A model generated the notes under the pieces. It saw nothing but the letters and a program-made list of their open reading frames with translations, made no database searches and was not told the DNA's origin. Both the position numbers and the translations under genes were made by a program. 64,000 nucleotides of DNA, taken from the NCBI GenBank assembly GCA_012729635.1, contig JAAYCT010000014.1, forward strand, positions 37,440 through 101,439. Reading direction: 5' to 3'. How positions within the stretch are numbered: the first letter of the stretch is position 1; each line of letters opens with the position of its first letter. The DNA comes from Clostridiaceae bacterium. Lineage in GTDB: Bacteria; Bacillota; Clostridia; Saccharofermentanales; Saccharofermentanaceae. Below, piece by piece: positions 3,346 to 59,168 of the stretch.

Positions 3346-3549
3346 CAGTCATTGTTTTCTTTATGAGGGGACTCGTGCTCTTGCGCTTTCGGCAGGATAT
3401 ACAGAAGAACGATTCCCGATTTTCAAGATCGTATATGGAGGTCATTCTATCATGGTTGATGTCCGGTGTAAATCGATGACAGAATGCCAACAATCTCCGG
3501 TAGATTTAGGTGGATAATCGGTCGCCGCCTTCTCTCGGACCGGTCCCGA

Positions 3550-6677: not shown

Positions 6678-7877
6678 CTACTTACCCAGCAAAAAATCGA
6701 CAAGTTTCATGTGAATGATTCCATCCCGCGAAACGGTCGTTCGGTCCCGTGTCACAACATACTTCGGATAGTTATCGCGGATTTCCGAATACGCTCCGAA
6801 CTCACGTTCGACCACGCGCTCATCGCTCAACAGATATGCCACTTGCAGATAAAACTTCTCCTGCCCCTTCTCCGCGATGAAGTCGACCTCTCCTTTTTGG
6901 GTTTTCCCGATAAACACCTTATATCCCCTTGAAATCAGTTCGTTGTAACAGACGGTCTCGATGATATGACCGTATTCGTCTTTGATCCTGTTCTTCTTCA
7001 ACCTGAAAAAACCCGGATCACACACATAGATTTTTTCCTGAAATGCCAGGATACTTTTGCCACGCACGTCATAACGCGAAATCTTGTCACAGATACACGC
7101 TTCCTCGATATAGCGAAGATAATCGTACACCGTCGGTGCCGAAACACTCGAGGGGCCTTCCGAGATCGACGCCGCGACAGCGTTTCCGGATATTGTAAGA
7201 GATGAGTTTGCGATTACATAGTCAAGGATTTTATCAAGCGCCGCTGTCGATGAAACATTATTCCGAATGACGATGTCCTTCAGCACAACGGAATCGTAAA
7301 TATTAGACAAGATTACTTCCTTGATGATCGCATCGTCTTCCCTGCAAACAAGCGGAAAACCGCCCCATTTCAGGTATTCATCGAGCATCTCGTCCGGATT
7401 CATCGAATTCTGTAAATCCGCTCGAAACTCCATGAATTCGCCAAAAGAAAAAGGCATGATTCGAAAAGAAAGCGTTCTTCCGCCAAGATGTGTCGCTAAC
7501 TCCCCGGACAGCAATTTTGAATTGGAACCGGTAAGAAAAATGCTGACATCGTGCGTTGCCCGAAAAGAATTGATGACCACTTCAAAGCGATCCACACTCT
7601 GAATCTCATCGAAAAACAGGTAAAACTTTCCCTCCTTACCGATTCGTTCCAGGATGTACCGGTAAAGAGTATCGGAATCAAGCATATCCCGATACGAATA
7701 ATCCTCAAAATTGACAAATATGATCCGCTCTTCCGAAATTCCTTCTTCCGAGAGTTCCTGAATGATTTGGCGCAGGATGGTCGACTTACCGCACCGCCTG
7801 ATCCCGGTAAGCACTTTGATCATTTCGGAGTGATAAAAGGGCCGGATTCGGCGCAAATAAGTTTCTCTTTTTACCAT
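6678..7877 (-). CDS. AAA+ ATPase of the DUF4143 'ATP-binding protein' family (paralog 1 of 3).
   Basis: Walker A GIRRCGKST and Walker B LFFDEIQ. Start set at the ATG (plus 7875-7877) with RBS GGAGGAAAGATGAG. The gene is AT-rich relative to its flanks. Confidence 0.8.
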   Translation of the reverse strand: MVKRETYLRRIRPFYHSEMIKVLTGIRRCGKSTILRQIIQELSEEGISEERIIFVNFEDYSYRDMLDSDTLYRYILERIGKEGKFYLFFDEIQSVDRFEVVINSFRATHDVSIFLTGSNSKLLSGELATHLGGRTLSFRIMPFSFGEFMEFRADLQNSMNPDEMLDEYLKWGGFPLVCREDDAIIKEVILSNIYDSVVLKDIVIRNNVSSTAALDKILDYVIANSSLTISGNAVAASISEGPSSVSAPTVYDYLRYIEEACICDKISRYDVRGKSILAFQEKIYVCDPGFFRLKKNRIKDEYGHIIETVCYNELISRGYKVFIGKTQKGEVDFIAEKGQEKFYLQVAYLLSDERVVEREFGAYSEIRDNYPKYVVTRDRTTVSRDGIIHMKLVDFLLGK

Positions 7878-8066
7878 CTCATCTTTCCTCCGGGCATATC
7901 CTGTTTTAAGAATAGCAGAATGAAAGAGATATGTAAACATAGAATTAATATATTTTAATTCTATGCCCATTTGTGTTTTTCGTATTAATCATGCTTAATT
8001 CCATTGATGGCATTGTTTATAACCCATTCGACGAATTGACTCAGATCGGGAGAGGATCCCGATCGC

Positions 8067-24200: not shown

Positions 24201-27200
24201 ACATTCCGACATTGCCGGTCGTCGTCAGATAAAAGTTATTGGTTCCGGTAAATCCGTTAAATTCGGTAATAATATTCTGGGTTCTGCCCGCGGACTCTGC
24301 AAAATCCACCCATACATCCCCGTAGCAGAACTGAGCATTGCTGTGCGTCGCATACGAGTTCAGCGTATAAAAGCTGCCTCCGTCGATGTTTTTCTTTTCG
24401 CCGTTCATCAGGTTGAACGGATACTGAACCACCTGTCCTTCTTTTCGAATTCTCAAAAAATCGGTAAATACGGAGTTCGACGTTCCGTCATTTCCTACGA
24501 AGTTCTGTGATTTTGTAAGGATCTTCGCGCTATCGAGAATCAAGGCATCCATGTTCCAATGGGTTCCGGAAGTGGGCGTCGATGTTGATGTCGGAGCGTA
24601 TACCCCTTCGCCCGCCGGAACCGGGCTTTCGCCGGTATCATGATAGCAAATTGTGTCATGACCGATCAGAAATCCGTATCCTTGTCGGATGTACTCGGAT
24701 AGTGCTTCCCGGGCAACTCCGCTGATATCTTTGTTGGAGTTTGCATCGGAAAAGCCGACCGTTACCAAATCGTATTTATAATTCCCTTCCTCATCGAAGA
24801 GATACAGATCAGGATTGGCGTTGAATGTGTTCAGGTATACCGAGTCAATCGTTAAACTTAGCCCGTTCGGCAACGAATGAGACAGGAGATAGTTAATAAT
24901 TGAATTTTCCATGCGTTTATCGCTCGGATAAACACAAAGTATACTGACATCCTTTTTTTCAAGATCGTAATCATAAACATACGGAGTCGGACTGGGCGTA
25001 GGGGTCGCCGTCGGAGTCGGACTCGGTGTCGGCGTTGCCGTGGGGGTAGGCGTAGGGGTCGGGGTTGAAGTCGGCGTCGGTGTCGGACTCGGCGTTGCTG
25101 TTGGCGTCGGTGACGGTGTCGGGGACGGAGTCGGTGTCGGCGTCGGCGCTCTGACCGTGACCGGGATCATAATCGAAACGCTCTCATAACGACCGTGTTC
25201 GGTCGGAACAAACAGTGCCTCGAAAGAGCCCGATTCTGTTGGAACGATCGAAGGATCGACCCACTGGGCTCTGCCGTCCACGCTTGCATCAACGACGTAA
25301 AAATTGAAAATATCGCTCAACGCTTCGCCCAAATCGATATCCCGAACTTCCGGGATCGAATAAATGACCGGGACTCCCTTGATCACTTCAATGAGAAGTG
25401 TGGTACGGGCTTCTTTATGATTTTCATCCGCTTCGATATAAGCTCTGATCTCCGCCGTGCCCAAATCAAGGAGAGAAACGGTATTCGCGGTGAGAGAAAC
25501 GACATTTTCCCCGCTCATCAGTTCATATGTCACGGCGCCTGTTCCCAAGCCTCCGATGGCTTCGATCGAAAAATCCGGCGTGCCGTATTCAACTGATATG
25601 TTGCTTTCCTCGAAACGAAAATTCGTCTGATCCAACTTCATCAGTGTCGCGCCGCCGGGGATGAAATCCTGTTCAAAGGTCATTTCATCGCACACAGCGG
25701 AACAATGGTATTCCTCGATCCCGGGAATATAGACGCAGATGTTTTGCAGTTCATCCGTGACTATATCCTTGATCCCGTACGGATACTCCGTTCCGTTCTG
25801 CGTCAGCGTCAGTTCGGTCACCGGCAGACCGACCGCGTCGGTTAACGGAATGATCGTTCTGAAAACCTCAATCCCCTGCGAATTATAAGTATACGTAGAC
25901 GTCAGAGGATGAATGGAGCCTCCGTCGATCGTAATGATCGCGGGTTCCTCGGCATGTTCCCCGGATCCGATCGTTACGGGAACGATTACCGGCTCCGATG
26001 GATCACCGGGTTCCTCCGCTGCGCGATCATCGACTTCGAATATCGTTCCGCCCGATATTGTGATTTTGCTCGCGACCGGTTCTGTTGTATCTATATAATG
26101 TTCAACCGCTCCGCCGCCGATACCCGCGCTCTGGATTCCATCCGAATCGTCCGGAAAATCAGCATTATAATATTCATCGAGACAGGTACTGCCAAAGGCA
26201 TAGACTGATCCGCCTTCGATCAGTATTTCGGATGCGTTCCGTTGCTGACCCGCACCGATGCCGGCGCCGCCATTATTACCATACGCATGAATAACTCCGC
26301 CGGTAATCGTGATTGTACCGATCATATCATAGTAAGGACTTCCGCCGATACCGGCCGCGCGATCTCCGCCAAAACCGGTGATGTTTCCTCCGTTGATGAA
26401 AATGTCCGGAGACGGACCGAATCCGGCTCCGATACCGGCACCATTTACCCCGCCTGTTGCAGTGATTTCACCGCCATTTATGGTGATGGTGCATTCCGAA
26501 TTTGAAATACTTGTACTCCCGTTATCCGCCCGGCCGATTCCCGCGGCATTTGTCCCGCCAACGGCTGTGACGGTTCCGCCGCTTATCGTTATCGATTGGA
26601 GTTCTCCTTGCATTCCGGTTCCTATTCCGGATCCGTGCCCCAAACTCGTCGCATCAATCACTCCGTCTTCGATCGTGATCGAAAAACCCTCTGAATAAGA
26701 ACCGCCGCCGATGCCCGCTCCGTTCATATCGGATCTTGCCGTGATGTCTCCTCCGGTGATCCTTATGGATCCGCCACCGCCCTCGTAGCCGTCGCCGATA
26801 CCCGCACCGTTTCCGGCTTCAGATACGGCGGTGATTTCTCCTCCGGAAATATCGACGGATGCGCCGCTTCCTTCATACCCTCCGCCGATTCCGGCTCCGC
26901 TTCCTTTGCTTGAAGCGTTGATCGTTCCGCCTTCAATCGCAACCGAAACGGTTTTCGAACGATATCCGCCTCCGATACCTGCACCGTAAAATTCGGATCT
27001 TGCTGTAATATTCCCTCCGGTAATCCGGATTGATCCGCCACCGCCGTTATATCCGCTACCGATACCCGCACCGCCTCCGGCGGAACTTGCCGTTACCGTT
27101 CCTTCGTTAATATCAACCAGGCCGCAGGAGCCTCCGATTCCGGTGTCGATACTATAGCCACCGCCGATACCCGCTCCGTAGTATGAAGAACCAATCGCCG

Positions 27201-27858
27201 TAACGATTCCGCTATTGATCGTAATGCTTCCGGCATCCGGATAATCATTATCGCCGCCGATCCCGGCGCCGCCTACGCCCCCTGTCGAGCTCAATTCACC
27301 GTCCGTGTCACTCGATACGGTAAGCGTCGCTCCCGAAGGGACCCGTATTCCTGCATAGTAGGGTCCGCTAACGATCGAATTGAATCCGATCAGGTCCAAA
27401 TTGACCATTGCGCCGGACTCTAAAATGAAGCAACCGTAAGGAGCTAATGATTGATCGTATTGGATATTGACAGAAGAAAGTGAGATGTTATGCGTTCCGC
27501 CGGACACAAGTACGGTATTGGGAGATGCCTCCGAACGGTCTGTTTGCGTAATGATATATCCGTCCGGGTCCGCATCGGAAATCAAATTTCCGACCCCATC
27601 GTATGCGCTGATTGTATCCTGACCGATCACAATATCGCCCTTGTCCACGTACAGTGTCGTTTTTATTCCGTCCGCCTCGGTCGGATCCAATCGGACACCG
27701 GCTTTTTGAGAGGCCGCCACAGCTTCCGCCACGTTTGTCTCTGCACCGATTATCGGGTAAAAATCGCCGATCGGAAGCATACAAAACGAAAGAATAATCG
27801 CGAAAAGTCTAGTGGAGAAACGATGCTTGGTCGGAATATTCATTTGGAACCCCCTCAA
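15283..27858 (-). CDS. Giant secreted RHS/YD-repeat polymorphic toxin, teneurin-like, 4191 aa.
   Basis: One uninterrupted ORF. N-terminal signal peptide ([13 protein letters not shown]). About 400 aa of ~20-aa Gly-rich repeats. Ig-like domains and a Pro/Thr linker. Multiple FN3-like domains and a PKD-like domain. A carboxypeptidase-regulatory/transthyretin-like domain. A YD-repeat shell of about 1280 aa (residues ~2615-3899) that ends with the RHS core motif [20 protein letters not shown] 292-aa C-terminal domain follows. Confidence 0.9.
15286..16161 (-). other. C-terminal variable (toxin) domain of the RHS protein, distal to the DPFGL motif. Fold unassigned.
   Basis: 292 aa after DPFGL (plus 16162-16176). 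The first ~100 aa are Gly- and hydrophobic-rich ([13 protein letters not shown]..., [14 protein letters not shown]). The distal ~180 aa have no motif I can assign. The DNA here is conspicuously AT-rich versus the rest of the gene. Confidence 0.6.
24985..25150 (-). repeat. Pro/Thr low-complexity linker (PTPTPSPTP...) within the RHS protein.
   Basis: Plus strand is a ggNgtNgg-type periodic tract. Translation [55 protein letters not shown]. Confidence 0.85.
26180..27320 (-). repeat. Tandem ~20-aa glycine-rich repeats (G-AGIGGGY-G...I-GG-ITA-S), likely a beta-helical repeat array.
   Basis: About 18-20 successive units, such as [24 protein letters not shown] / [28 protein letters not shown]. Coordinates are approximate. 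Confidence 0.6.
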
Positions 27859-42557: not shown

Positions 42558-44099
42558 TCAGAGAGTGAGCACCAACCGCAGATGGGCAAGAGCACTTTCG
42601 CTGAGATATGATTCTTGCTCTCTCAAAAGTTTCAGAATCGTCGTTTTTTGTTCCTCCGTCGGGGCCGAAAACGAGCGATTATAAGTTCCGAACCAGCGGA
42701 TAAATTGTGTCCTGCACATGTTCCGCAAAGGCTCATGCTTATCGGACATGAACCGCAAAATATATATCATTCGCTGCCATTTACCGGCAGAGAACAACAG
42801 CGCCGCACACTTCATTTTCGTACTTCCGTATGGGGTCATGCTGAAAATCTCCTCGATCCGATCATAATCGTGGATCCGGTACTTTTGGATTAATTCTTTC
42901 GCGGTTTTTACAATTCCCCCATGCCCGGACAAAAGCATTTCCGGAATGACCGCGCCGTATCGGCGGGGATCCAACCGCATCAGAGAAATCATCGACGCGC
43001 GAATCACGTCGACCCTGTCACTTTTAAGGTAAGGCTCGATCATTTCGCAAATCGCCGGTGATCCGACTTCACCCAGACCGAGGATAGCGACGGCAGTGTG
43101 AGGGTTTTGTCTTTCCATGTAAAAATTCAAAAAATCAAACCCGGGATCTGTTTTTGTGATAAGGCTTCTTGAAAACTCTCGAACAAACGCGTTCTTATCG
43201 GTCAACAACGACTCCGCTTTCCGAAAAATATCTTTCCGATCCAAATCGTCAAGATACTTCAGCGCGGCATATCGAACACCGGAATATTTATCCGTAAGAA
43301 GCGCATCAGCCAGGTCGGATACATCCAAATCGGTCTTAATGAGCGATTCAAACGCCGTTTTACGCGAAAGCGGATCCTTTCCCCGCAAAATGTATTTTCG
43401 CAGTATCTCCCGGTTCTTCTCCGGAGACCTCAGCAGGATTCGAAGACAAGCATTTCGGATTCCGGAGTTTGAATCAAACAAGCCATCTTCGACGATATGT
43501 ATATTCGCCGGGTCATTGATGACTGTGTCAAAAAGATGGGCGATTTCGGGATACGCACACCTTGTACTTCTTCTTAATCTGTCTATCAATGATATGGATT
43601 GAAGCAGTTCCTGCTCAGAAGCCACTTTCAATCCTTCCGAAAATGAATCAAACGCCGTCTGCCGAACTTCTCCCACCCAATCGTTCAGCCTGGGGATCAC
43701 AAACGGCAAAGTCGCTTCAAATTTACCAAGATATTCTACCGCTCTTTGACGTATATAGCCGTTCGAACTAAAGGTCGAAAAAATGACTGCGGCTCGCTTT
43801 TCCTCTGGAGACATCCCGGAGGTGATGAAATCAGTAATCATCTCCGCCTTCCAAATTGCAGAGCATGAATAATGGGGTTGACGCATATGCGCCCCAGCTT
43901 CTACGATTTGGTCAAACGTTGAACGCCTTAAGAAGGCGGCGAGGGTTTGTGCCGCCTTTTTTGTATACATGGGTATATTCTCTGCAAGAACAGAGAAAAT
44001 GCACGGAATCGCCCACAAATGGCCGGCGTTCAAGTCTTCGATGAAGCCGTCCAGGCGCGATGAGAAGAATGGAACTTGTTTGCGCTTAAAAAACAACAT
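42558..44099 (-). CDS. HEAT-repeat (PBS-lyase-like) protein, 513 aa, function unknown.
   Basis: Repeated LL-D----VR--A---L units (LLTDKYSGVRYAALKYL, LLTDKNAFVREFSRSLI, and others). No catalytic motif recognised. Encoded immediately downstream of rtcB. Confidence 0.6.
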   Translation of the reverse strand: MLFFKRKQVPFFSSRLDGFIEDLNAGHLWAIPCIFSVLAENIPMYTKKAAQTLAAFLRRSTFDQIVEAGAHMRQPHYSCSAIWKAEMITDFITSGMSPEEKRAAVIFSTFSSNGYIRQRAVEYLGKFEATLPFVIPRLNDWVGEVRQTAFDSFSEGLKVASEQELLQSISLIDRLRRSTRCAYPEIAHLFDTVINDPANIHIVEDGLFDSNSGIRNACLRILLRSPEKNREILRKYILRGKDPLSRKTAFESLIKTDLDVSDLADALLTDKYSGVRYAALKYLDDLDRKDIFRKAESLLTDKNAFVREFSRSLITKTDPGFDFLNFYMERQNPHTAVAILGLGEVGSPAICEMIEPYLKSDRVDVIRASMISLMRLDPRRYGAVIPEMLLSGHGGIVKTAKELIQKYRIHDYDRIEEIFSMTPYGSTKMKCAALLFSAGKWQRMIYILRFMSDKHEPLRNMCRTQFIRWFGTYNRSFSAPTEEQKTTILKLLREQESYLSESALAHLRLVLTL

Positions 44100-44217: not shown

Positions 44218-45420
44218 CTATGCCTTAAAGTTATAGATCGGAACGATGCGTTTCTCCACGTCGACGGTCGGACGGATCTGAGCGACGATATCATCCAGGC
44301 TCTTGTATGCCATTGGCGATTCATCGAGCGTTCTACTCGTCACGCAAGTCGAGTATATTCCCTCCATCTGCTCCCGAAACTCGTCGAGCGACAATTTGGA
44401 AAAGGCCTCTTTTCGACTCATCAGACGTCCCGCCCCATGCGGCGCGGAGTTGTTCCAATCCTCATTTCCTTTGCCGACGCAGATCAAACTGCCGTCGCGC
44501 ATGTTGATCGGAATCAGGAGCCGCTCACCCTTATGGGCCGACACGGCGCCTTTTCTGAGGATCATCTCGTCGGTATCGACATAGTTGTGGATCGTAGTAA
44601 ACCGATCACACTCGTTCAGGTTAAGCCCGGAAAGAACCACTTCCGTCATCGCTTTTCGATTCAGCACCGCGAACCGCTGGATGATTTTCATATCGTGGAT
44701 GTAATCCTCGAAAAGCCGTCCCTCCAGATACGCCAGATCCTTGGGGATATCGATCGGTAAATCATGTTTGCCCTTCATCGACCGGACCGTTTCGAATATC
44801 TCCTGTTCGCGCCCTTCACTTTTAAGCTTTTCGATCACGTCATCGATCTGGTAGTTCGCATGACCCTTCATCGATTTTGCTGCTTCATTCTGGTAGTACT
44901 TGGCGACTTCGTTTCCGATGTGGCGACTGCCGGAGTGGATCACCAGGAAAAGACATCCGTCTTCATCCCGGTCGACCTCGATAAAATGGTTACCGCCGCC
45001 CAAGGTACCGATGCTGTTTCGCGCCCGCTCGATGTTCACAAACCCGGCACAACGCAAAGCCTGCAGATCGATCTCTTCGTGTAACGGATGCGGGCTGTTA
45101 CGGATCGAAAAACCGCTCGGAATCTCACGGCGGATCAAAAAATCGAGTTGATCCAACTCAATATCATGATCCCCGAGACAAACAGTCTCCATGCCGCATC
45201 CGATATCGACACCCACCATACCGGGAACGATTTTGTCGGTGACGGTCATCGTCGTTCCGATCGTGCATCCCATACCGGCGTGCACGTCCGGCATGATCCG
45301 GATTTTGGAGGACGAAAATTCCTCCCGGTTGCAAACTCCGCGGATCTGTTCTTCGGCGGACTGATCCAATCGCGAACAAAAACAGACCGCCTGATTGTGA
45401 AATCCCTTGACTTCGATCAT
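44218..45420 (-). CDS. rtcB: RtcB-family RNA 3'-phosphate ligase.
   Basis: 400 aa. Conserved metal and GTP-site motifs IMPDVHAGMGCTIGTT, GTLGGGNHFIEV and NSAPHGAGR. Confidence 0.85.
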   Translation of the reverse strand: MIEVKGFHNQAVCFCSRLDQSAEEQIRGVCNREEFSSSKIRIMPDVHAGMGCTIGTTMTVTDKIVPGMVGVDIGCGMETVCLGDHDIELDQLDFLIRREIPSGFSIRNSPHPLHEEIDLQALRCAGFVNIERARNSIGTLGGGNHFIEVDRDEDGCLFLVIHSGSRHIGNEVAKYYQNEAAKSMKGHANYQIDDVIEKLKSEGREQEIFETVRSMKGKHDLPIDIPKDLAYLEGRLFEDYIHDMKIIQRFAVLNRKAMTEVVLSGLNLNECDRFTTIHNYVDTDEMILRKGAVSAHKGERLLIPINMRDGSLICVGKGNEDWNNSAPHGAGRLMSRKEAFSKLSLDEFREQMEGIYSTCVTSRTLDESPMAYKSLDDIVAQIRPTVDVEKRIVPIYNFKA

Positions 45421-45490: not shown

Positions 45491-46597
45491 TTAATTATCT
45501 TTGCCCCTCAGGATCGATGTCAACTGCGTGAGAACATCTCCGTTTCCGCCGAGGTTAATACTCCCGACATTCTCACAGATCCGCTCGACGTACTCCAACT
45601 CCTTGAGTTTTAAGAGCGTCCGGTTCTCGTCCATCAGTTTGGCCGTGTTCAGAAGCGACCGCGTGGAGGCAACCTCCTCACGCCGCGTGATGACATTGGC
45701 CTGCGCACGCTTCTCGGCGACAAGCACAGTGTTCATGATATCGCGGATCTCGCCCGGAAGGATGATGTCCTTGACCCCGGCTGAAGCAATCTGAATGAAG
45801 AGAGAATTTTCGTTCATCTTCAAACGTTCGAAAACATAACGCGACATTTCCTCTTTATTTTCGAGGATCTCATCGATTCTGTACTTTCCGACGTACTCAC
45901 GGAGCGCCAACTGAGCTGCGACGTGGAGCTGTTCCCGATAGTCGTCGATCTCGCTGTCGATCCGCACGCAGTCAACGACTCTGTAAGTGCACACGAAGTT
46001 GATCCGTAAAGCGACCTTGTCCTGAGAAAGGATCTCCTGCCCGGAAATCTCCATCTTCGTCAACCGCGTGTCGACGAGGCTGACCTCCACCTTCACGTCG
46101 TTCTTCCAGAAGTAGTACGTTCCGGGCTCAAGGACGCGGACGAAATTGCGGTTAAAGCTCAACCGCCCTTTCTGGAACCCGGCTACCTCATACTTCACGA
46201 AGTATGCCTCAGGGATCTTCGAAAAGAGGTAACCGGGCACATCTTCAGAGACCTCCGGAGTCGTGATGTCTACAAGCTGGAATGTTTGCTTCGAGTAAAC
46301 AGACCAGAAGGCATACTTGCCCTGACTCAACACCTGACGGAATCTCCCGTCAACAAAATGCAAGGCCAGTTTGCAGTCGGCAACATCGATCACTTCAACC
46401 GATGCGAGAATCGCCGGGTCGTCGAGAAGGATCTCCAGAGAAGCGTTCTTCGACGCAACCATCCGATCCAGACTTTGCAACTCGATCTGTACGTCGCTCA
46501 AAAAAGAGTACTTCCCTGCGCGCAACATCTTCACATACTTGCCGTTCTTGAAAAGAAGGCCTCTCTCGTTCTCTTTAATTACTGTTTTCATATTCAT
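45491..46597 (-). CDS. SPFH/band-7 (stomatin/prohibitin-like) domain protein with an N-terminal beta-rich extension and no TM helix.
   Basis: C-terminal SPFH core (QDKVALRINFVCTYRVVD...REQLHVAAQLALREYVGKYRIDEILENKEEMS...AEKRAQANVITRREEVAS). RBS GGAGGGT. Confidence 0.7.
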   Translation of the reverse strand: MNMKTVIKENERGLLFKNGKYVKMLRAGKYSFLSDVQIELQSLDRMVASKNASLEILLDDPAILASVEVIDVADCKLALHFVDGRFRQVLSQGKYAFWSVYSKQTFQLVDITTPEVSEDVPGYLFSKIPEAYFVKYEVAGFQKGRLSFNRNFVRVLEPGTYYFWKNDVKVEVSLVDTRLTKMEISGQEILSQDKVALRINFVCTYRVVDCVRIDSEIDDYREQLHVAAQLALREYVGKYRIDEILENKEEMSRYVFERLKMNENSLFIQIASAGVKDIILPGEIRDIMNTVLVAEKRAQANVITRREEVASTRSLLNTAKLMDENRTLLKLKELEYVERICENVGSINLGGNGDVLTQLTSILRGKDN

Positions 46598-46839
46598 ACC
46601 CTCCTTCAGGTTTTATAGCGTTGGCGATTGCCCGTGCACCGGCCGCGGCCGGAATCTTCAGGAGAAAGAGTCATAAGCGGGACGCTGAAGTATGACTTAC
46701 TCTCTCTTTGCCCCGGTATCCGATCCCGATCAAGGCTTCCGACACACTGTCTTTCGGGTTCGGATACTGCCGAAGCATTCCTTTTCGCGAAAGACGGGAC
46801 AATCGCTTCCAAATTGGCCGAATTTTACATCGGCGCGGC

Positions 46840-47010
46840 TGCCTCTACGACAGCGGTTCACCAAACCATGTTTTTACAACACGCGCAGGAATCGAACCTG
46901 ACTAACACCTTGTGGGTCACTTACCCTTTTACGGCTGTGACAACCATGCACAAGTCCCCGTGTGGCATACGCTTCGGAACCTCCTCGCGCACCGCCGTGT
47001 CTTTGAAACA
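46840..47010 (-). ncRNA. Candidate structured ncRNA with a tRNA-like T-arm (possible Y-RNA/YrlA-like tRNA mimic) in the 570-bp gap upstream of the SPFH-rtcB genes.
   Basis: Minus strand contains CAGGTTCGATTCCTG (plus 46866-46880), a near-perfect tRNA T-stem-loop. No complete cloverleaf or CCA was found. It is flanked by the direct repeat TGCGCGTGTT. The gap has no plausible ORF. Confidence 0.25.
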
Positions 47011-47167
47011 CGCGCAACGGCACCTTGCATACTCATCATGCCAAAGGAGAATCATCGGTTCACGGAAAAAAACCTGCGAACTTCGTTGAAAAATCCCGGA
47101 TCAAGTCCGGGATGTCGTTTTGCGGATTGTTTTCGAGCGGAAAAAGAAGCGGCGGGAATCATTCAAA

Positions 47168-48064
47168 TCAGAGCGGATACAGCTCCATCTGTTTTTGAAG
47201 CCGGTAACGGATCAGCTCGATAAAGCTCTCCGGCTCAACCACCCTTACAAAGGGTCCGAAGGAGAGTACGCGGATCAGGATCTCGGTCTCGTCGGTCTGA
47301 TCATAACGAAGCGCCACCCGATAACGGTCCTCCGCGATCCGTTCCGCTCTTTTTTCAAAATGAGCGAAGTGCAAGAACAGTCGCTCCATCGCGTTTCTTC
47401 GGTCGATCAATTCCAGGGTCAGAGAACAGGTTTTCCCAATGCGTGACTTTCCGTGATCTAGCTGCTCGCCGGGGTAAGGATTACAGGAGATGATTTTTGA
47501 TAAGTTGATCGTACCCGCATACCGGCACCCGGTCGAGATCAACCGGAACTTATCGTCCTTCTCCGAATACTCCAGATGATCCGGCAGAACCTTCATAAAC
47601 ATGGATTTCCCATAACGGTTCAGGATGCGAATGCCCAAAGGCGTCTTGTCTCGGATCGCGCTTAGGATCACACGGAAATTGCGGATATATGTCTCATCCG
47701 AATAATCATCTCCGTCCCCGTACCGGTCGAAAACCACATAGTCCTCCGGAGTAAACAGCGGATCGACATCATCGAGTCCTTGGAATTCCACCCCGAAAAG
47801 CGCCACGCGCGGATCGAGCGAGACTGCCTTCAGCCAACGCTTCTGGATCGTCGCAAGCGGCATCGTCGGCGCATGGCGTATCGGGGTCTTCAGATCATGC
47901 CCGAGCAACTGCCATCGCGCTTCTTTAAGAGCCGGAACGATCGTCAATACACTCTCGGAAAAGGCATGTTCGTCCGTGATCTCCCGGAGATCTTTTTCCG
48001 AAAGATTTCCGTTTACGGCCGCTTCCAAAATTTTCGCGACCGTCTGGTAGTACGCGCCGTACAT
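47168..48064 (-). CDS. WYL-domain-containing transcriptional regulator (PafC-like partner).
   Basis: C-terminal WYL/WCX-like region (RYRVALRYDQTDETEILIRVLSFGPFVRVVEP). The start is ambiguous. ATG at plus 48062-48064 avoids overlap with the upstream gene. The longer ORF to 48223 would overlap by 148 nt. Confidence 0.55.
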   Translation of the reverse strand: MYGAYYQTVAKILEAAVNGNLSEKDLREITDEHAFSESVLTIVPALKEARWQLLGHDLKTPIRHAPTMPLATIQKRWLKAVSLDPRVALFGVEFQGLDDVDPLFTPEDYVVFDRYGDGDDYSDETYIRNFRVILSAIRDKTPLGIRILNRYGKSMFMKVLPDHLEYSEKDDKFRLISTGCRYAGTINLSKIISCNPYPGEQLDHGKSRIGKTCSLTLELIDRRNAMERLFLHFAHFEKRAERIAEDRYRVALRYDQTDETEILIRVLSFGPFVRVVEPESFIELIRYRLQKQMELYPL

Positions 48065-48075
48065 CTCACTGAAAA

Positions 48076-49338
48076 TCACGTCGCATATCCTCCATCCGCC
48101 TTTGACTCCGTCTCCATACCATACATCTGTGCCATCGCGCGAAAATCCGCCCGAAACTGCTCTTCCTGTTCGCGATCCGAGAATTCTAGGTTCACGATCC
48201 TGCATAAATAGGATCGAATCCACGGATTCAGTTCGGTCGGATCATAGACATCCGCCGTGAATCGCAATGTGTGTTCGTCCAGTCGCTCAACCGTCCCGCA
48301 GCGCTTCTCACGTTCCAGGCGCTGAATAATATACTCTTCTCCGTCATCGATATGAACGTCGAAAAGAACCCTCTGAGTGCGCGATTCGTTTTTTCGGGTC
48401 ATCACGCCCCACATGTGTTGACACATGCGGTCGAGCTTTTCACGAAGTTCGTTAAATCGGTTATTCTGTTCGCCGATCTCTACGCTTCGCAAGTAATCCG
48501 TCCGGAACACCCGGATTTTCTTCATTCGTAAGCAAAACACGAGAACGTACTGTCGACCGCTCTGAGCGCTGATATAAATCCGCAAAGGAACGACGCGATC
48601 CCGGGTTAAGCCCCCCCTCCGGCTTTGATTTTCAAGTGTGACCTCACGCTTTTCGCGCATCGCGAGAAAAAGGTCGCACAGCGCTTCGCTGTCGAGCGCG
48701 TGAGTGATGTAATGGTGCTTAAAGGTAAATGCTTCCGGCGCTCCCCGCCCTTTATCGAGAAGAAAAGACCCGATCACCCCGCACGGCGCGATCTCCGAGA
48801 AGAAGTCGAGCAGATCCGTGTGCTCCGAAAGATCGGTATCCTCCGCTCTTCGATACAGGACCTGCCTTCCCTCTTTTTCCGCTTGAAGAAGACCCGCTTC
48901 GGTGTATTCCTTGAGTTTTTTTCGCAGGGTCGAATCGTCGACGGATATCGGCTCTTCGAAAAACGACAAATACCGGTTATTCATCTCGTCCATGATCTCC
49001 GATACGGTCATCGCGACGTCCGGCGAGTGGAGGATGTCAAACAGGATGAAGTGAAGAGTAATGTCGCCGTCGGTAAAACTGCTGGTTTTCCAGGCTCTGA
49101 AAAGCGGGTTGTGCGGGCACGCACGGCTGTCGATCGACAGGAAGCAATTTTTCCCGTCCGGAGTCTGGCTGAAGCCCATATAATCGCCGAGCCAGCTCTC
49201 GACCCGCCGCTTCTCGTCGTCATAAGAGCGCGCGCTTTTTTGTGAGAACTGCTCCCGGCTCTTAAAGCCGTACACGTAGAACTCCCTCATGTATTCACGG
49301 ATTCGCTCAAAACTCTTGATGCGCTCGTTGTAGGCCAT
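48076..49338 (-). CDS. HTH-WYL-domain transcriptional regulator (PafB-like).
   Basis: Classic WYL motif RQYVLVFCLRMKKIRVFRTDYLRSVE. 420 aa. RBS AAGGATG. Confidence 0.7.
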   Translation of the reverse strand: MAYNERIKSFERIREYMREFYVYGFKSREQFSQKSARSYDDEKRRVESWLGDYMGFSQTPDGKNCFLSIDSRACPHNPLFRAWKTSSFTDGDITLHFILFDILHSPDVAMTVSEIMDEMNNRYLSFFEEPISVDDSTLRKKLKEYTEAGLLQAEKEGRQVLYRRAEDTDLSEHTDLLDFFSEIAPCGVIGSFLLDKGRGAPEAFTFKHHYITHALDSEALCDLFLAMREKREVTLENQSRRGGLTRDRVVPLRIYISAQSGRQYVLVFCLRMKKIRVFRTDYLRSVEIGEQNNRFNELREKLDRMCQHMWGVMTRKNESRTQRVLFDVHIDDGEEYIIQRLEREKRCGTVERLDEHTLRFTADVYDPTELNPWIRSYLCRIVNLEFSDREQEEQFRADFRAMAQMYGMETESKADGGYAT

Positions 49339-49438: not shown

Positions 49439-50630
49439 TCACCCGATCAGCCAGTTCGAGACATCTACGATTTTAATCCCTTCGTATTGGTACGATTCAT
49501 GTCTTGTTCTTGCAATAATAATTTTCGGGTAAGCATCTTTGATTTGCAGGAGCGGATCCACTTCCCGTGCAAAGGTTTTCGGGTCGCTGATATTGTCCGA
49601 AACCTGTATGTAAAGTTTCTCATCCCGCCGGATGGCAACAAAATCAATTTCTCTTCTATACAAGATCCCGGCGTACAATTCATATCCCCGGCGCAACAAG
49701 TCGATCGCGATTATATTTTCGATCATTCGTCCGTAATCGAGATTTTTAGTCCCGAGTTTAGCATATCGAAAAGCGTGATCGCTCAGATAGTATTTATGAT
49801 TTGAGGATAAGTATTTCTTTCCCCTGATGTCATATCTTCTCACTATGTAAAATGCAAAGGCATTACAAAGATATGCCATATATGCACTGACTGTCTTATG
49901 GTTCACCGCATCCCGGTTGCCGGTCAGCGAGTCCGCTATACTTCTCGCTGACGATAGATTTGAAATGTTATCCAACAAAAAATCTGTGACCCGGTCCATC
50001 AAGGCGATATTCCTGATTTTGTACTTCTGTCGAATATCGCGGATGATCAGAGTATCAAATACATCAGCGATGTATTGATACTTCTCGTCTGTCGAGGTAT
50101 AAGCGTAGGATCCCGCCATGCCCCCCTCAATCAAAAAACGCTCATATGCTTCATACGGATCACTAAGCGAATAGTAGTCCATGAATTCCGGTAACGAAAA
50201 CGGAAATACCTCGATTTCGAAGGTTCTGCCCGTAAAAAGTGTCGCCAAATCGCTGCCCAATAAAAAAGCGTTGGATCCGGTGATATAAATGTCATATTTT
50301 CCGGAAGAATGAAGACTGTTGATCGTAAGCTCGAATTTCGGGCACAATTGCACTTCATCAACGAAAAGATAATTCGACTTGCCCCGCTCGTATCTATCCT
50401 CGATATAATCGTTCAGTCGGTGATAATCGAGAAGCCTCTCGAAAGAAAGGTCAGTTAAATCGATATACGTAACATTGGCCGTTTGATCGGTGCTTCGAAT
50501 AAAATCAACAAATGATTCGACCAGACGAGACTTTCCGCTTCGTCTGACGCCGGTGATCACCTTAATGTCCGGTGTTCCCCGAACCCTCTTCAACTGATCA
50601 AGATAATACTTTCGCTCGATCCATTTCATT
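49439..50630 (-). CDS. AAA+ ATPase of the DUF4143 family (paralog 2 of 3).
   Basis: Walker A GVRRSGKSRL and Walker B LFVDEVQ. Start at plus 50628-50630 with RBS GGCGGAGGG. AT-rich gene. Confidence 0.8.
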
Positions 50631-50715
50631 GTTTTACCCTCCGCCCCCATTGTAACATTCTATTTCCCAAAATCAATATATATTGAATATCGGGAAATAG
50701 ATTCCTGCCTTCCGG

Positions 50716-53019: not shown

Positions 53020-53307
53020 GTGAAAAACAACTACCGTCAATATGAAGAGACGGCGACTTTTTTGAAAAGCATCGCGCACCCGGTTCGGATCTGTATCATC
53101 ATGAACTTGAGCCGGAAGAAAGAGTGCAACGTGACGACCATGAAATGCGGACTGGATCTGCCGCAATCCACGATTTCGACCCATCTTTCGGTATTGCGGG
53201 ACATCGGTGCGGTCGAGACAGTGCGCAGGGGAACTGAAATATATTACCGGTTGAAAGACAAAAAGATCGTACAACTATTGATCCGGGCAGGAGTGAGCGA
53301 AAAATGA
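53020..53307 (+). CDS. ArsR/SmtB-family transcriptional regulator, a candidate persulfide-responsive (BigR/CstR-like) repressor.
   Basis: GTG start after AAGGAG. HTH block ECNVTTMKCGLDLPQSTISTHLSVLRDIGAV. Three Cys. Its stop overlaps the start of the downstream sulfurtransferase gene. Confidence 0.75.
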   Translation: MKNNYRQYEETATFLKSIAHPVRICIIMNLSRKKECNVTTMKCGLDLPQSTISTHLSVLRDIGAVETVRRGTEIYYRLKDKKIVQLLIRAGVSEK

Positions 53308-55790
53308 AAAAGAAGATTTTGATCGTCGGCGGAGTAGCCGGCGGAGCCACGGTCGCGACCCGATTAAGAAGACTCGACGAGGAAGCCCGGATCATCCTTT
53401 TTGAGCGCGGTGAGTTTATCAGTTTTGCCAACTGCGGTCTGCCGTACCATATCGGAGAAGTGATCCGGGAAAGAAGCAGTCTTATCGTAACCACGAAGGA
53501 AACCTTCCGGGATCGATATCGCATCGACGTCCGCACGGAATCCGAAGTCACGGCCGTGCATACCGAAAGTAAAGAGGTATCGGTCCGCAAGAAGGACGGT
53601 ACCGGGTACCGGGAGAGCTACGACGAATTGATCCTTTCTCCCGGAGCGATGCCGCTGACTCCGCCCATCCCGGGTATCGACCTTCCCCGGGTGATGAGCC
53701 TTAGAAGCATCCCGGACATGGATCAAATCAAGGCCGCCGTAGACGGCGGTATTCACAGCTGTACGGTCATCGGCGGCGGATTCATCGGCATTGAGGTCGC
53801 CGAGAACCTGGTGCACCGCGGCGTCGAAGTGACCTTGGTGGAAGCTGCGCCGCACGTCATGGCCTCTCTGGACACCGAGATCAGCATGATCTGCGAAAAG
53901 GAGCTTCGCGACAACGGCGTTGAGCTCATTTTGGAGGACGGAGTGGAATCCTTTACCGAAATGGACGGGAACATCCGCACAAAGACGGCTTCCGGCAGAT
54001 ACGTGGATGCCGATCTGGCGGTACTGGCCATCGGCGTTTGTCCGGACACGGCGTTCCTTAAAGATTCCGGGATCGCGCTGAACGATCGCGGGTATATCAA
54101 AACCGACGCCTATATGAAGACCTCCGTCGATCACGTTTGGGCGGCGGGAGACGCGGTGGAGACCCTTGACTCGATCACGGGCGAGCCGGCCACCATGGCT
54201 TTGGCCGGACCGGCCAATCGCCAGGCACGAATCATCGCGGACAATATCTGCGGCATAAAACGCAAATACAAAGGCGTGCAGGGGACCTCGATCCTCAAGG
54301 TTTTCGATCTGGTTACCGGATCCACCGGCCACAACGAACGACAACTGATCCGCGCGGGAACCCATCATCATGTCTACTATATTCACCCTCAGTCTCACGC
54401 CGGCTACTATCCCGGCGCGATGCAGATGACGGCAAAGATCCTCACCGGAGAGGACGGTCGCCTTCTGGGCGCGCAGGTCGCCGGCTACGACGGAGCGGAC
54501 AAACTCACGGATGTTTTCGCGACCGTGATATCCCTCGGCGGCACGATCGACGATCTGGCCGAACTGGATCTTTCTTACGCGCCGCCTTTCGGCTCGGCAA
54601 AATCGCCGGCGAATATGATCGGTTTCGTGGCGCAGAACGAACGCGACGGACTTGTAAAGCACAAAACTTTTACTCAGTTCGAAGCCGAATTCGATCCGGA
54701 AACCGACATTCTTCTCGACGTCCGCGAAACGTTGGAATTCGAGAACGAGGCATTGCCGGGAGCTGTAAATATCCCTCTGGATCAACTCCGGGAACGACTG
54801 AACGAGATTCCGAAGGACAAGCAGATCTGGACTTACTGCGCGGTCGGCCTGCGCGGTTATACCGCGGCCCGCATCCTTCTTCAGAACGGCTATAACGTAA
54901 ATAATATCGGCGGCGGCATTCGTTTGCAGGCGCTGGGCAAAGTTACCGAAACGATCCATGGAGGTCATATGCAAAAAGAAGCGATTCCGGTCACCCATGA
55001 AGACGGCACTCAGATCCTTCCGGAAAAGACCGCGGAGACACCGGCCCGGGTCATCGAAGTGGACGCCTGCGGATTGTCCTGCCCCGGCCCGCTGATGAAA
55101 CTAAAAGAAAATATGGATACGATCGCTCCGGGAGACATCCTTCACATCAAAGCGTCCGATCCCGGATTCTATCCGGACGTACAGGCCTGGGCACGCCGAA
55201 CGGGCGCCGAGATCCTCTCGCTTCAAAAGTCCGGCGGCCTCGTGGACGTTCAGCTGAAAAAAGGCGGAGCCGCGGCGGTGTCGGCCGCTCCGTCCGCTTC
55301 CGTACCTGCCGATGCCACCCAAAAGAACAAGACCCTGGTCGTCTTTTCGGGAGACCTCGACAAGGCGATCGCCTCCTTTATCATCGCGAACGGCGCCGCG
55401 GCGATGGGCGGCAAGGTCACGATGTTCTTTACCTTTTGGGGCATCAATGTCTTACGGAAGCCGGAACCGGTCAAGGTGAAGAAGACCTTGATCGAGGCGC
55501 TTTTCGGGCGGATGATGCCAAGAGGCACAAGGAAGCTCGGCCTTTCGAAAATGAACCTGGCGGGCATGGGCCCCGCGATGATCAAAAAGATCATGAAGGA
55601 CAAAAATGTCGATTCCCTGGAGTCCCTGATGACCCAGGCGCAGAAGAACGGCGTGGAACTGGTCGCCTGCCAGATGTCGATGGACCTTCTGGGTCTAAAG
55701 CTCGAAGAGCTCATCGACGGCGTCAAGGTCGGCGGAGTGGGCTACTATCTCGGGGATGCCGAAGAGTCCGCGGTGAATTTGTTTATCTGA
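53304..55790 (+). CDS. Multidomain FAD-dependent CoA-disulfide/persulfide reductase fused to rhodanese, TusA-like and DsrE-like domains.
   Basis: N-terminal Pyr_redox (ILIVGGVAGGATVATRL, active-site Cys in FANCGLPY). Rhodanese domain (LLDVRETLEF...TYCAVGLRG). TusA CPxP motif (CGLSCPGPLMKL). DsrE/DsrF-like C-terminus (LVVFSGDLDKAIASFIIANG). Confidence 0.85.
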   Translation: MKKKILIVGGVAGGATVATRLRRLDEEARIILFERGEFISFANCGLPYHIGEVIRERSSLIVTTKETFRDRYRIDVRTESEVTAVHTESKEVSVRKKDGTGYRESYDELILSPGAMPLTPPIPGIDLPRVMSLRSIPDMDQIKAAVDGGIHSCTVIGGGFIGIEVAENLVHRGVEVTLVEAAPHVMASLDTEISMICEKELRDNGVELILEDGVESFTEMDGNIRTKTASGRYVDADLAVLAIGVCPDTAFLKDSGIALNDRGYIKTDAYMKTSVDHVWAAGDAVETLDSITGEPATMALAGPANRQARIIADNICGIKRKYKGVQGTSILKVFDLVTGSTGHNERQLIRAGTHHHVYYIHPQSHAGYYPGAMQMTAKILTGEDGRLLGAQVAGYDGADKLTDVFATVISLGGTIDDLAELDLSYAPPFGSAKSPANMIGFVAQNERDGLVKHKTFTQFEAEFDPETDILLDVRETLEFENEALPGAVNIPLDQLRERLNEIPKDKQIWTYCAVGLRGYTAARILLQNGYNVNNIGGGIRLQALGKVTETIHGGHMQKEAIPVTHEDGTQILPEKTAETPARVIEVDACGLSCPGPLMKLKENMDTIAPGDILHIKASDPGFYPDVQAWARRTGAEILSLQKSGGLVDVQLKKGGAAAVSAAPSASVPADATQKNKTLVVFSGDLDKAIASFIIANGAAAMGGKVTMFFTFWGINVLRKPEPVKVKKTLIEALFGRMMPRGTRKLGLSKMNLAGMGPAMIKKIMKDKNVDSLESLMTQAQKNGVELVACQMSMDLLGLKLEELIDGVKVGGVGYYLGDAEESAVNLFI

Positions 55791-57920: not shown

Positions 57921-59168
57921 TTACCTGTTCACACTATCCGGATCCAACAGGAAGTCAAAGAGATTGAGTATAAGGATTCCCTCATTGTTATATCGGGTAG
58001 GCTCATCCTTTACGATTATGATTTTTTTGAATGAATCAGTGATTCGGATCAGTGAATTCTCTTCCCGAAGCTCCTTTTCACGGGTTCCTAAAGATAATGC
58101 CGATTGTATGTACAATCTTCGCGAACCTTGATTACAGACAAAATCAACTTCTGCCTGTCTCTGTATGCGTTTTCTGTCATTATCATATAAACTGAACTCG
58201 ACTACACCGACGTCGACGTTATACCCTCTGATTAGCAACTCGTTGAAAATCACATTTTCCATAATGTGCGTTTCTTCGTATTGCCTGAAATTGAGGCGCG
58301 CATTTCTGATTCCCAGATCCGTGAAGTAGAATTTAACCGGTGTACTAATGTATTTTTTTCCCTTAACATCGTACCGTTTGGCTTTGCTCACAAGAAACGA
58401 GTCTTCAAAATAATCCAGATAATTCTTGACCGTATCCGGATGAATGGAAACATTCTTAAGTGTCATAAATGTATCTGCCAGTTTCTTGGGATTTGTCAAG
58501 CCTCCGATCGTAGACGCAAGATAATCCAATAATTCTTCCAGTTCGGACGGATTCCTGACAATATTTCGATCGAGAATATCTTTTATATATGTTTCACGGA
58601 TGATGTCCTTGAGGTAATCCGCCTTATCCTGGATGTTTTCGATTTTCAGCAGCCCCGGAAGACCGCCATAAAGTGAATAGTACTGCCAACCTTCGCGCTT
58701 ATCCCCGGGAAACGCACTCATGAATTCCGAAAACGAAAGAGGGAAAAGATGAACCTGATCCCCTCGGCCTCTGAATTCGGTAATGATATCTTTGGAAAGA
58801 AATTTGGCATTACTGCCCGTTACATAAGTGTCCGCATTTCCGATATGCAAAAAACTGTTCAGAACATCCTCAAACTCCCGCACAAGCTGCACTTCATCAA
58901 GGAGAATGTATACCATATCATTATCTGCAATTTTACTGTGAACAAACCGGTAAAGGGCATCGGGATCCCGATATTCTTTATTCCTTCTGTCATCAAGCGC
59001 AATCCTTATAATATGATCTTCCGCTACCCCAGTATCCAAAAGGTAACGGTAAAACAGTTTAAATAACAAATAGGATTTACCGCATCTCCGAATACCGGTG
59101 ATGATTTTAACCATGCCATTATTTTTCTTTCGAATCAGTGCATCCAAATATAACGGTCTTTCCATCAT
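57921..59168 (-). CDS. AAA+ ATPase of the DUF4143 family (paralog 3 of 3).
   Basis: Walker A GIRRCGKSYL and Walker B LLDEVQ. 415 aa. AT-rich. Confidence 0.8.
   Translation of the reverse strand: MMERPLYLDALIRKKNNGMVKIITGIRRCGKSYLLFKLFYRYLLDTGVAEDHIIRIALDDRRNKEYRDPDALYRFVHSKIADNDMVYILLDEVQLVREFEDVLNSFLHIGNADTYVTGSNAKFLSKDIITEFRGRGDQVHLFPLSFSEFMSAFPGDKREGWQYYSLYGGLPGLLKIENIQDKADYLKDIIRETYIKDILDRNIVRNPSELEELLDYLASTIGGLTNPKKLADTFMTLKNVSIHPDTVKNYLDYFEDSFLVSKAKRYDVKGKKYISTPVKFYFTDLGIRNARLNFRQYEETHIMENVIFNELLIRGYNVDVGVVEFSLYDNDRKRIQRQAEVDFVCNQGSRRLYIQSALSLGTREKELREENSLIRITDSFKKIIIVKDEPTRYNNEGILILNLFDFLLDPDSVNR

Follow-up and report, generated by a model that had tools for sequence, protein, structure and literature searches.

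Two questions regarding bacterial RNA repair are open in the field: what the RNA ligase RtcB repairs, and why RNA-repair operons carry their own RNAs shaped like transfer RNA (tRNA). Among the described RNAs of this kind, YrlA was defined through its proximity to a Ro60 gene (~4 kb, same strand), a 5' motif (GNCGAAN0-1G), and tRNA-like elements in the order V, T, AS, and D (Chen et al. 2014, PMC4201824), and a second RNA, b7a-tRNA (Burroughs & Aravind 2016), is given in a short passage as a predicted, unvalidated, tRNA-resembling RNA that adjoins a Band-7 gene, itself adjoining rtcB (bioRxiv 10.1101/312249, Wang et al. 2018). The locus described here lies in a 64-kb stretch of DNA (hereafter ‘the window’, with position 1 as its first nucleotide) from contig JAAYCT010000014.1 of a Clostridiaceae bacterium, in the gap at 46598-47167 between a WYL-family regulator gene and a slipin gene that directly precedes rtcB. 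Because a 5' domain and a 3' domain flank a tRNA-like core, the gap is filled by one structured RNA of ~440 nt (about 47028 to 46624, minus strand), with three domains and about 70 covarying pairs; its middle domain is a permuted tRNA mimic in which a T-arm is followed, in turn, by a closed acceptor-like hairpin, by a D-like hairpin that has GG in its loop, and by a capped hairpin. A tRNA-mimicking RNA ahead of the slipin–RtcB operon occurs in many gut Clostridia; that this RNA is genuine, conserved, and structured, and that it contains a tRNA-like module, is nearly certain.

The starting point was an original prediction, made from the nucleotide sequence of the window, which reported a tRNA T-arm within an otherwise noncoding gap. 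That stretch is indeed noncoding, extending from the stop codon of a WYL-type gene at 47168 to the slipin gene, the reading frame of which opens at 46597 and the actual start of which is more likely at 46591, because the homologues are 366 aa long. The T-arm is also present, on the minus strand, and is found once in 64 kb (0.01 expected from shuffles), at 46886-46900 rather than at the position first assigned to it (46866-46880, a displacement of 20 nt). It proves to be one of about ten helices of the ~440-nt RNA, and forms the first element of the core:

46886-46900, minus strand: T-arm CAGGTTCGATTCCTG (CAGG-UUCGAUU-CCUG), with a canonical T-loop
46867-46883, minus strand: acceptor-like hairpin (AS), CGUGUU-GUAAA-AACAUG, starting 2 nt after the T-stem
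46856-46866, minus strand: D-like hairpin, GUU-UGGUG-AAC (GG in the loop); the family form, from which it diverges, is GCCAG-UGGUU-UGGU
46838-46854, minus strand: capped hairpin, GCUGUC-GUAGA-GGCAGC, at the position of the anticodon arm
46817-46834, minus strand: extra hairpin GCCGAUGUAAAAUUCGGC in a variable linker, from the minimum-free-energy fold, kept with changes in two related loci (L081 and L083)

The resemblance of this core to tRNA is found in its canonical T-loop, GG-containing D-loop, and acceptor-like stem; the order of its parts is permuted, and it is without an anticodon loop or CCA. As the acceptor-like hairpin is closed by a loop, it has no free 3' end, and as the order of the modules is a circular permutation, no cloverleaf can be built from them, which accounts for the failure of the earlier attempt to assemble one. 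The accompanying statement that neither a tRNA nor a CCA is present agrees with the search results: ARAGORN called no genes in the window, and a permissive Rfam scan of the gap gave only a tRNA-Sec alignment (17 bits, E=1.8). All Rfam matches to the T-arm, including those to the transfer-messenger RNA (tmRNA; 14 bits) and tmRNA_permuted (10-13 bits) models, were sub-threshold, with none at gathering level to the tRNA, tmRNA, or YrlA models. Across related loci, ARAGORN called a tRNA in 3 of 30, with anticodons in odd positions, and the Rfam tRNA model gave no match. Searches with the remaining Rfam 15 models (ROOL, GOLLD, HEARO, OLE, raiA, and others) returned as their sole gathering-level match in the window a T-box at 3150-3361, and none on the element in 11 related loci. 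A cloverleaf of standard order, taken from the tRNA-Sec alignment with ACACG/CGUGU as its acceptor, was also considered and rejected, since the strand that follows the T-stem pairs locally in all relatives, and since the upstream sequence GYGUAUGCC lies in the same sense and is not complementary. The sequence next to the T-arm had further been said to recur about 130 nt upstream; two copies of TGCGCGTGTT do exist on the minus strand, 129 nt apart (46878-46887 and 47007-47016), but they belong to different hairpins (the 3' end of the T-stem plus the acceptor-like stem, and hairpin P1 of the 5' domain, respectively), and a functional role for the repeat was rejected and the repeat judged incidental because it is lost in the closest relatives, L081 and L083.

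Comparative analyses were conducted on 80 genome loci fetched by way of the slipin protein, ~72 of which include upstream sequence, and on 84 related loci that were searched by tblastn with the window proteins. Conservation of the T-arm in orthologous intergenic regions, upon which the original prediction depended, is extensive: a T-arm of the form GGTTCRANTCC is located ~300 nt before the slipin start in 65 of the ~72 loci with upstream sequence, and GGTTC-A-TCC is invariant in 62. Five anchors (a T-rich motif, GCGGTGC..AGG, GYGTATGCC, the T-arm, and GGATACCG) keep a constant order and spacing across loci, and the consensus of 62 leaders is conserved from an extended -10-like box through the ribosome-binding site. 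When 62 loci were folded singly with the T-arm constrained, the same four elements recurred in nearly all of them, and in the window as well, with the acceptor-like hairpin 0-2 nt beyond the T-arm, followed by the D-like hairpin with its GG loop and the capped hairpin; across the family the latter displays a stem of 4-6 bp and a loop that is usually GAAA or UUCG, and the linker past the D-arm ranges from 2 to 10 nt.

A covariance model (R1) was built from 42 sequences (alignment A3); about 60 loci reach 25-85 bits with it, and the match falls at the syntenic position in every one. In the core alignment, which was fitted to the R1 model, 88.8% of cells are paired (71.4% in shuffles, and 35-49% in slid controls) and 272 cells display double changes, as opposed to 87 in shuffles, with none of 500 shuffles reaching as high a number. 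The T-stem covaries at its pairs (CG 56/UA 18, and GC 50/AU 28), on a plain MAFFT alignment as well; compensatory changes are found at all six pairs of the acceptor-like stem and all five of the capped hairpin, and the family D-stem covaries (AU 45, GC 7, UA 3, CG 2) around a loop GG that is nearly invariant. Folding and covariation across homologous loci, the check that had been put forward with the T-arm, therefore found compensatory changes in every core helix. The divergent window copy follows the same pattern, each of its helices being preserved by compensatory changes relative to L081 and L083 (for example, within the subclade the acceptor-like stem CGUGUU/AACAUG becomes CAUGCU/AGCAUG, and in L081 the D-stem GUU/AAC becomes AUU/AAU).

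These data bear directly upon two of the rival explanations. The first, that the motif is a degenerate tRNA pseudogene, the remnant of an integration site, or a 15-mer that resembles a T-arm by chance, draws on the lack of a cloverleaf, CCA, or tRNA call and on the frequency of T-arm-like words in many contexts; a pseudogene had also been named alongside the original prediction as an explanation that would undo it. That reading is refuted by conservation and covariation (the element is syntenic in well over 100 loci, carries compensatory changes in every helix, and is flanked by conserved domains, and such a T-arm is expected 0.01 times per window), and its probability is negligible. The second takes the RNA as a permuted pre-tRNA-like molecule that is cut on both sides of the core and joined by RtcB into a circular or re-ordered tRNA-shaped RNA. 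Permuted tRNA genes exist in some algae and archaea, the core corresponds exactly to a cloverleaf that has been circularly permuted by opening at the variable loop, its acceptor stem being closed by a loop, and an RNA ligase for 2',3'-cyclic phosphate and 5'-OH ends is encoded in the operon. Inspection of the alignment, in which no dedicated search was made, nevertheless showed no bulge-helix-bulge, no other conserved cleavage motif, and no pairing that would unite the flanks of the core; moreover, the hairpin at the anticodon position has a tetraloop and not a 7-nt loop, the linker past the D-arm ranges between its 2-nt and 10-nt extremes, and some loci are without rtcB. We regard such processing as very improbable.

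A separate structure was noted in ~22 loci, including L001 (5619-5663), where an insert between the 5' domain and the T-arm carries a second T-loop-like hairpin (GGGGTTCAACTCCCC) with flanking helices. This insert, which the window lacks, is the source of the odd ARAGORN tRNAs in L018, L041, and L055, and displays a weak mascRNA-like Rfam match.

The domains on either side of the core account for the rest of the RNA:

46948-47028, minus strand: 5' domain, a three-way junction, from a column-pair scan and RNAalifold
47023-47028 with 46948-46954, minus strand: helix P0 of the 5' domain, GCAAG with CUUGU (family form GCAAG/CUUGC)
46996-47012, minus strand: hairpin P1
46964-46993, minus strand: helix P2, GCGGUGC...GGA/UCC...GUAUGCC
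46909-46947, minus strand: insert that separates the 5' domain from the T-arm, kept among the window, L081, and L083, and variable in length and content across the family
46624-46806, minus strand: 3' domain, a long irregular stem of ~180 nt closed by GCGAUUGUCC/GGGCAAUCGC, from RNAalifold

In the 5' domain, double changes number 42 in P2 (GUGCGC/GCGUAU) and 12 in P0, and the partner assigned to P0 pairs in 28 of 49 sequences, compared to 17.6±2.0 when shuffled; a pairing of GCAAGG with a distal GCCUUG was dropped in favor of the proximal CUUGC. In the window itself CUUGUG could alternatively pair with CACAAG (46909-46914), around a GGGU/ACCC hairpin. The 3' domain, analyzed on a structure-blind MAFFT alignment of 47 sequences, displays compensatory changes in 30 of its 33 predicted pairs, with 87.6% of cells paired (65.2% shuffled, 36-44% in slid controls) and 390 double-change cells (127 shuffled). 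An internal loop of that domain holds the near-invariant GGAUACCG (46714-46721), which is exact in 47 of 66 loci; one hairpin with a conserved loop is also present, and several of the unpaired motifs of the domain are invariant or nearly so. A local hairpin, CCCG-AAAA-CGG, ahead of GGAUACCG was discarded for the long-range pairing CCGA/UCGG. GCGGUG and UACCGU form a candidate tertiary pairing, both motifs of which are invariant and hence provide no covariation signal.

The genes surrounding the RNA, and the signal for translation of the slipin, are as follows:

48076-49338, minus strand: WYL regulator 1, 420 aa, with winged helix-turn-helix (HTH), WYL, and WCX domains (Pfam WYL, 8.5e-08)
47168-48079, minus strand: WYL-family regulator 2, 303 aa (weak Pfam WCX match, E=4.6e-4, under the curated cut-off)
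46599-46604, minus strand: Shine-Dalgarno sequence GGAGGG of the slipin gene, read from the sequence, ~20 nt past the 3' domain
45491-46591, minus strand: slipin (SPFH/Band-7), 366 aa (Pfam Band_7, 3.9e-24; homologues are named slipin)
44218-45420, minus strand: RtcB RNA ligase (Pfam RtcB, 5.9e-63)
42558-44099, minus strand: HEAT-repeat protein, 513 aa (Pfam HEAT_2)

Regulator 1 also produces weak matches to HTH_20/PaaX and WCX (Pfam) and to an ArsR-type HTH (NCBIfam); regulator 2 is joined to it by an ATGA start/stop overlap, and has counterparts in 303-aa gene calls of L081, L083, and L088. The nearest database relatives of the window slipin are found in Oscillospiraceae and other gut Clostridia. 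This protein is predicted to be soluble, a search for membrane helices having returned none, and in its structural model three beta repeats (GKYxF[LW]) at the N-terminus precede an SPFH domain, while the C-terminus is a long helix. Foldseek searches with the model matched stomatin, HflK/C, and prohibitin cages, and identified the major vault protein as the only one to align near full length (400-470 columns, E ~2e-9, TM-score 0.32-0.39).

Among the genomes, the gene that follows the RNA is almost always slipin, usually then followed by rtcB, and two WYL-family genes usually lie 5' of the RNA. The tblastn searches found WYL regulator 1 in 60 of the 84 related loci, regulator 2 in 65, and RtcB in 60, with many of the misses corresponding to contig ends; the HEAT-repeat protein and an AAA_14 ATPase encoded beside the WYL pair were found in none. 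The conserved module is therefore WYL–WYL–RNA–slipin–RtcB, and the RNA holds its position within it in different genera. A scan of metagenome contigs for the 5'-domain motif produced 119 pattern matches, 48 of which also carry the T-arm and the GGAUACCG motif; where enough downstream sequence was available, a slipin gene on the same strand followed 31 of 32 such copies and none of 47 chance matches, and rtcB followed slipin in 16 of 23. Three pattern matches on viral contigs were all due to chance, with neither an R1 match nor slipin.

In several loci (L004, L012, L024, L034, L064, L066, L076, and others) no rtcB adjoins the WYL–WYL–RNA–slipin series, and the genes past slipin are mutually unrelated. 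Because these loci retain the RNA and slipin together, slipin, and not RtcB, is the tightest partner of the RNA. In approximately eight loci the RNA lies ~950 nt 5' of slipin: in L013, an extra 215-aa ORF with no Pfam match (2802-3449, plus strand) is found between the two, and the spacing points to an extra ORF likewise in L015, L022, L027, L052, L056, L070, and L071. Even where the 215-aa ORF has been inserted, the operon thus still begins with the RNA. In L002, a T-arm followed by ...CATCTCCGCCA and a terminator lies just past rtcB on the opposite strand (5054-5128, minus strand); it resembles the 3' terminus of a tRNA or tmRNA gene, which ARAGORN did not call.

The HEAT-repeat gene does lie near rtcB, as the original prediction stated, and had suggested that the RNA might be a true YrlA-family Y RNA in which Ro60 is replaced by the HEAT-repeat protein. 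The order T, AS, D and the canonical T-loop are common to both RNAs, the RNA-binding ring of Ro60 is itself built of HEAT repeats (Chen 2014, PMC4201824), and in the window and its closest relatives the HEAT gene is on the same strand, ~118 nt past rtcB. Yet that gene is found 3' of rtcB only in relatives with a slipin ~95% identical to that of the window (L088 and L089), is already gone at 85% and 74% slipin identity, and has no counterpart in any of the 84 RNA-bearing related loci, and its product has no match to TROVE (Pfam) or to Ro60 (PDB); its role as an Rsr stand-in or Ro analogue was accordingly rejected, and the HEAT protein is a lineage-specific neighbor outside the conserved module. 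The reported lack of an Rsr gene agrees with a scan of window ORFs of at least 380 aa, which covered all of these except the 4191-aa one and two that overlap other ORFs, and which found no TROVE protein; none was found either among the called genes of L081-L090, a scan that did not extend to the 80 genome loci. The YrlA motif GNCGAAN0-1G is absent: at that place the window reads UUCCGAAG and most loci read CCAAAG, the longer window sequence GGUUCCGAAGCG having U where G is required and the family consensus being UUCCAAAG. The Rfam YrlA model gave no match at E<=10 in window positions 46500-47300 and no gathering-level match in 11 related loci; it does align T, AS, and D of L001 in register, at 14.8 bits against a gathering threshold of 69. 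The YrlA-with-HEAT reading is thus largely refuted by synteny, and we consider it extremely unlikely. Because it has neither the 5' motif nor a Ro gene beside it and scores below threshold, the slipin-upstream RNA is not a YrlA, though the topology of its core resembles the YrlA tRNA-like module; what endures of the earlier identification is a conserved tRNA-mimicking noncoding RNA tied to an RtcB operon.

Upstream of the RNA, three elements are found:

47089-47113, minus strand: terminator-like palindrome ATCCCGGACTTGATCCGGGA followed by UUUUU, past the regulator genes, a putative terminator (the palindrome was flagged on the plus strand)
47058-47083, minus strand: invariant 26-nt motif AAGTTCGCAGGTTTTTTTCCGTGAAC, overlapping the -35 region
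47035-47043, minus strand: putative extended -10-like element TGGCATGAT (family consensus tggTAnAAT, from 62 leaders and alignment A5)

The 26-nt motif is followed at a fixed distance by the -10-like element, and the first helix of the RNA begins 6-7 nt beyond. Within 120-260 nt 5' of the T-arm, TTTTTTCCGTG (<=2 mismatches) is present in 62 loci; a 23-nt stretch of the AAGTTCGCAGGTTTTTTTCCGTGAAC motif is identical in five distant loci, and the motif is near-invariant where the proteins are only 45-60% identical. In many loci, such as L001 (5440-5475), GTTCGCAGC-T7 also supplies the 3' arm and the U-tract for a terminator-like hairpin (GCTGTGAGCTC...GAGTTCGCAGCTTTTTTT) past the second WYL gene; in the window subclade, the GTTCGCAGC motif occurs without the 5' arm, and a separate hairpin is located at 47089-47113. 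Since this subclade keeps the motif without its role in a hairpin, its conservation points to protein binding, and the motif is a candidate operator for the WYL pair, consistent with the earlier suggestion that the gap is where the WYL regulators would bind. Regulation of the two downstream genes in common has been described in Anabaena, where TrcR co-represses rtcB and a slipin gene (PMC10272220).

The position of the RNA raises the most substantial alternative to a free-standing function, namely that it is a cis-regulatory leader or sensor, a folded 5' untranslated region that governs the stability or translation of the slipin–rtcB mRNA. In one variant its binding partner would be RtcB, slipin, a WYL protein, or a protein that recognizes tRNA, with tRNA mimicry bringing about autoregulation as it does in thrS; in another, cleavage of the leader by a ribotoxin would allow damage to turn the operon on. 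The RNA does lie between the promoter region and the Shine-Dalgarno sequence, and no minus-strand terminator was found in the gap between the RNA and that sequence; the 3' domain ends ~20 nt before the Shine-Dalgarno sequence in most loci (in the window the RNA ends ~30 nt before the slipin start), the RNA keeps the 5' end of the operon where an ORF intervenes before slipin, and several of its invariant unpaired motifs resemble binding sites. On the other hand, no conserved alternative pairing that would sequester the Shine-Dalgarno sequence or form a terminator was found, the stretch past the 3' domain being A/U-rich and variable; known protein-binding leaders make do with far less than three large domains and about 70 covarying pairs; and the comparable tRNA-like YrlA of Salmonella lies within the rsr-yrlBA-rtcBA operon. 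A cis-regulatory leader is, in our estimation, less likely than not, and a leader role is compatible with a role as a ribonucleoprotein partner and may coexist with it.

The explanation we favor, in which a structured RNA with a tRNA mimic serves as a partner to slipin and RtcB, is as a whole probable by a slight degree. The RNA would form the 5' portion of the slipin–rtcB transcript, which would start from a weak, activator-dependent promoter at ~47035-47083 next to the 26-nt motif, to which the WYL pair would bind, and would be made together with slipin and RtcB when that pair turns the operon on. The RNA may then act as a partner of both proteins, in the manner of a Y RNA for Ro60, with a cytoplasmic slipin oligomer as the scaffold and the tRNA-like elbow offering a tRNA-shaped surface to RtcB, or to other tRNA-recognizing enzymes or toxins, during RNA repair. 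Hints in this direction are the predicted solubility of the slipin, its N-terminal beta repeats, the likeness of its model to cage-forming SPFH proteins and to the major vault protein, and the co-repression by TrcR in Anabaena. Function as a ribonucleoprotein partner, when taken by itself and argued from analogy, is plausible while falling somewhat short of an even chance.

Several observations weigh against this explanation. The R1 model matches the window copy only over T and AS (46866-46901), at 14 bits (E=0.017 for the window, 0.23 pooled), and the folding energies are unexceptional and uninformative (whole gap, z=-1.68; core, z=+0.61). A generic sigma-70 scan of the gap finds no promoter, a result that fits a weak -35 element and dependence on an activator. 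The loci that carry the RNA and slipin with no adjacent rtcB indicate that the link between the RNA and RtcB is not obligatory; the RNA stands directly 5' of a ribosome-binding site, the usual place of a cis-regulatory leader; the function set out above is a proposal; and the identification with b7a-tRNA rests on a description one paragraph long.

Other features of the window are of separate interest. Three AAA_14/DUF4143 ATPase paralogues are encoded in the 64 kb, all on the minus strand (6678-7970, 49439-50650, and 57921-59168), one of which, given on the line below, lies directly upstream of the WYL pair and is missing from related loci:

49439-50650, minus strand: AAA_14/DUF4143 ATPase

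The T-box leader at 3150-3361 (minus strand; Rfam, 125.7 bits) is directly 5' of a class-I aminoacyl-tRNA synthetase gene (719-3124, minus strand) with a Leu-type editing-domain match, an ordinary arrangement. An ORF at 15283-27858 (minus strand) forms a single reading frame of 4191 aa, and the R1 match within it at 23350-23447 was dismissed as due to chance. An 828-aa fusion (53304-55790, plus strand) of pyridine-nucleotide-disulphide oxidoreductase, rhodanese, TusA, and DsrE/DrsE domains suggests sulfur-trafficking chemistry that is unrelated to the RNA.

A literature search on RtcB together with SPFH, slipin, or vault returned nothing on the present RNA. Among described systems, the closest precedent is b7a-tRNA. 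As in its short description, the window RNA is immediately 5' of a Band-7/SPFH gene that directly precedes rtcB; b7a-tRNA, known here by that description, is said to strongly resemble authentic tRNA, whereas the RNA of the window is permuted, is closed at its acceptor and anticodon ends, and holds its tRNA-like part as one of three domains in ~440 nt. No b7a-tRNA family exists in Rfam. Judged by its gene context, the slipin-upstream RNA appears to be a new, divergent member of the b7a-tRNA kind, and the complete RNA, with all three domains, may well be undescribed so far.

The PafBC system, an actinobacterial WYL pair of the DNA-damage response, offers a parallel for the regulators: in both cases two adjacent genes of the HTH–WYL–WCX type lie 5' of a stress or repair operon with a conserved promoter-proximal motif. 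The window proteins are only distantly related to PafBC, and the second matches WCX only, below the cut-off. The locus supplies a candidate DNA site and a target operon for this widespread regulator pair.

The vault particle consists of the major vault protein, which has an SPFH-like shoulder domain, together with vault RNA and the TROVE protein TEP1. The module described here likewise combines a small structured RNA of its own with a protein of the SPFH fold that carries beta repeats at its N-terminus and a long helix at its C-terminus; the TM-scores are low, and the likeness is one of analogy and not of membership. The most extended form of our proposal, that an undescribed ~440-nt, three-domain class of Clostridia RNA, a vault-protein-like slipin oligomer, and RtcB might constitute a damage-induced repair particle under WYL–WYL control, as a counterpart to Ro and Y RNA or to the vault and vault RNA, is doubtful and is offered tentatively.

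The comparison with YrlA (Rfam RF02553) concerns topology. Both RNAs display a canonical T-arm, then a closed acceptor-like hairpin, then a D-arm, and both are encoded in an RNA-repair operon that contains RtcB and are thought to act with a scaffold protein. In the present RNA, by contrast, the 5' and 3' ends form no Ro-binding stem, the D-loop is much shorter, two large extra domains are added, and the mimic is opened at the variable loop and not at the anticodon loop, because the strand past the D-arm forms its own capped hairpin. Cultivable carriers of the locus include Oscillibacter valericigenes Sjm18-20 (L032; AP012044.1, about 467-481 kb) and Robinsoniella peoriensis. The locus would represent a second case, unrelated to Ro, in which a repair ligase travels with a tRNA mimic and a scaffold protein, and would lend weight to the view that RNAs resembling tRNA are working components of the machinery for RNA repair.

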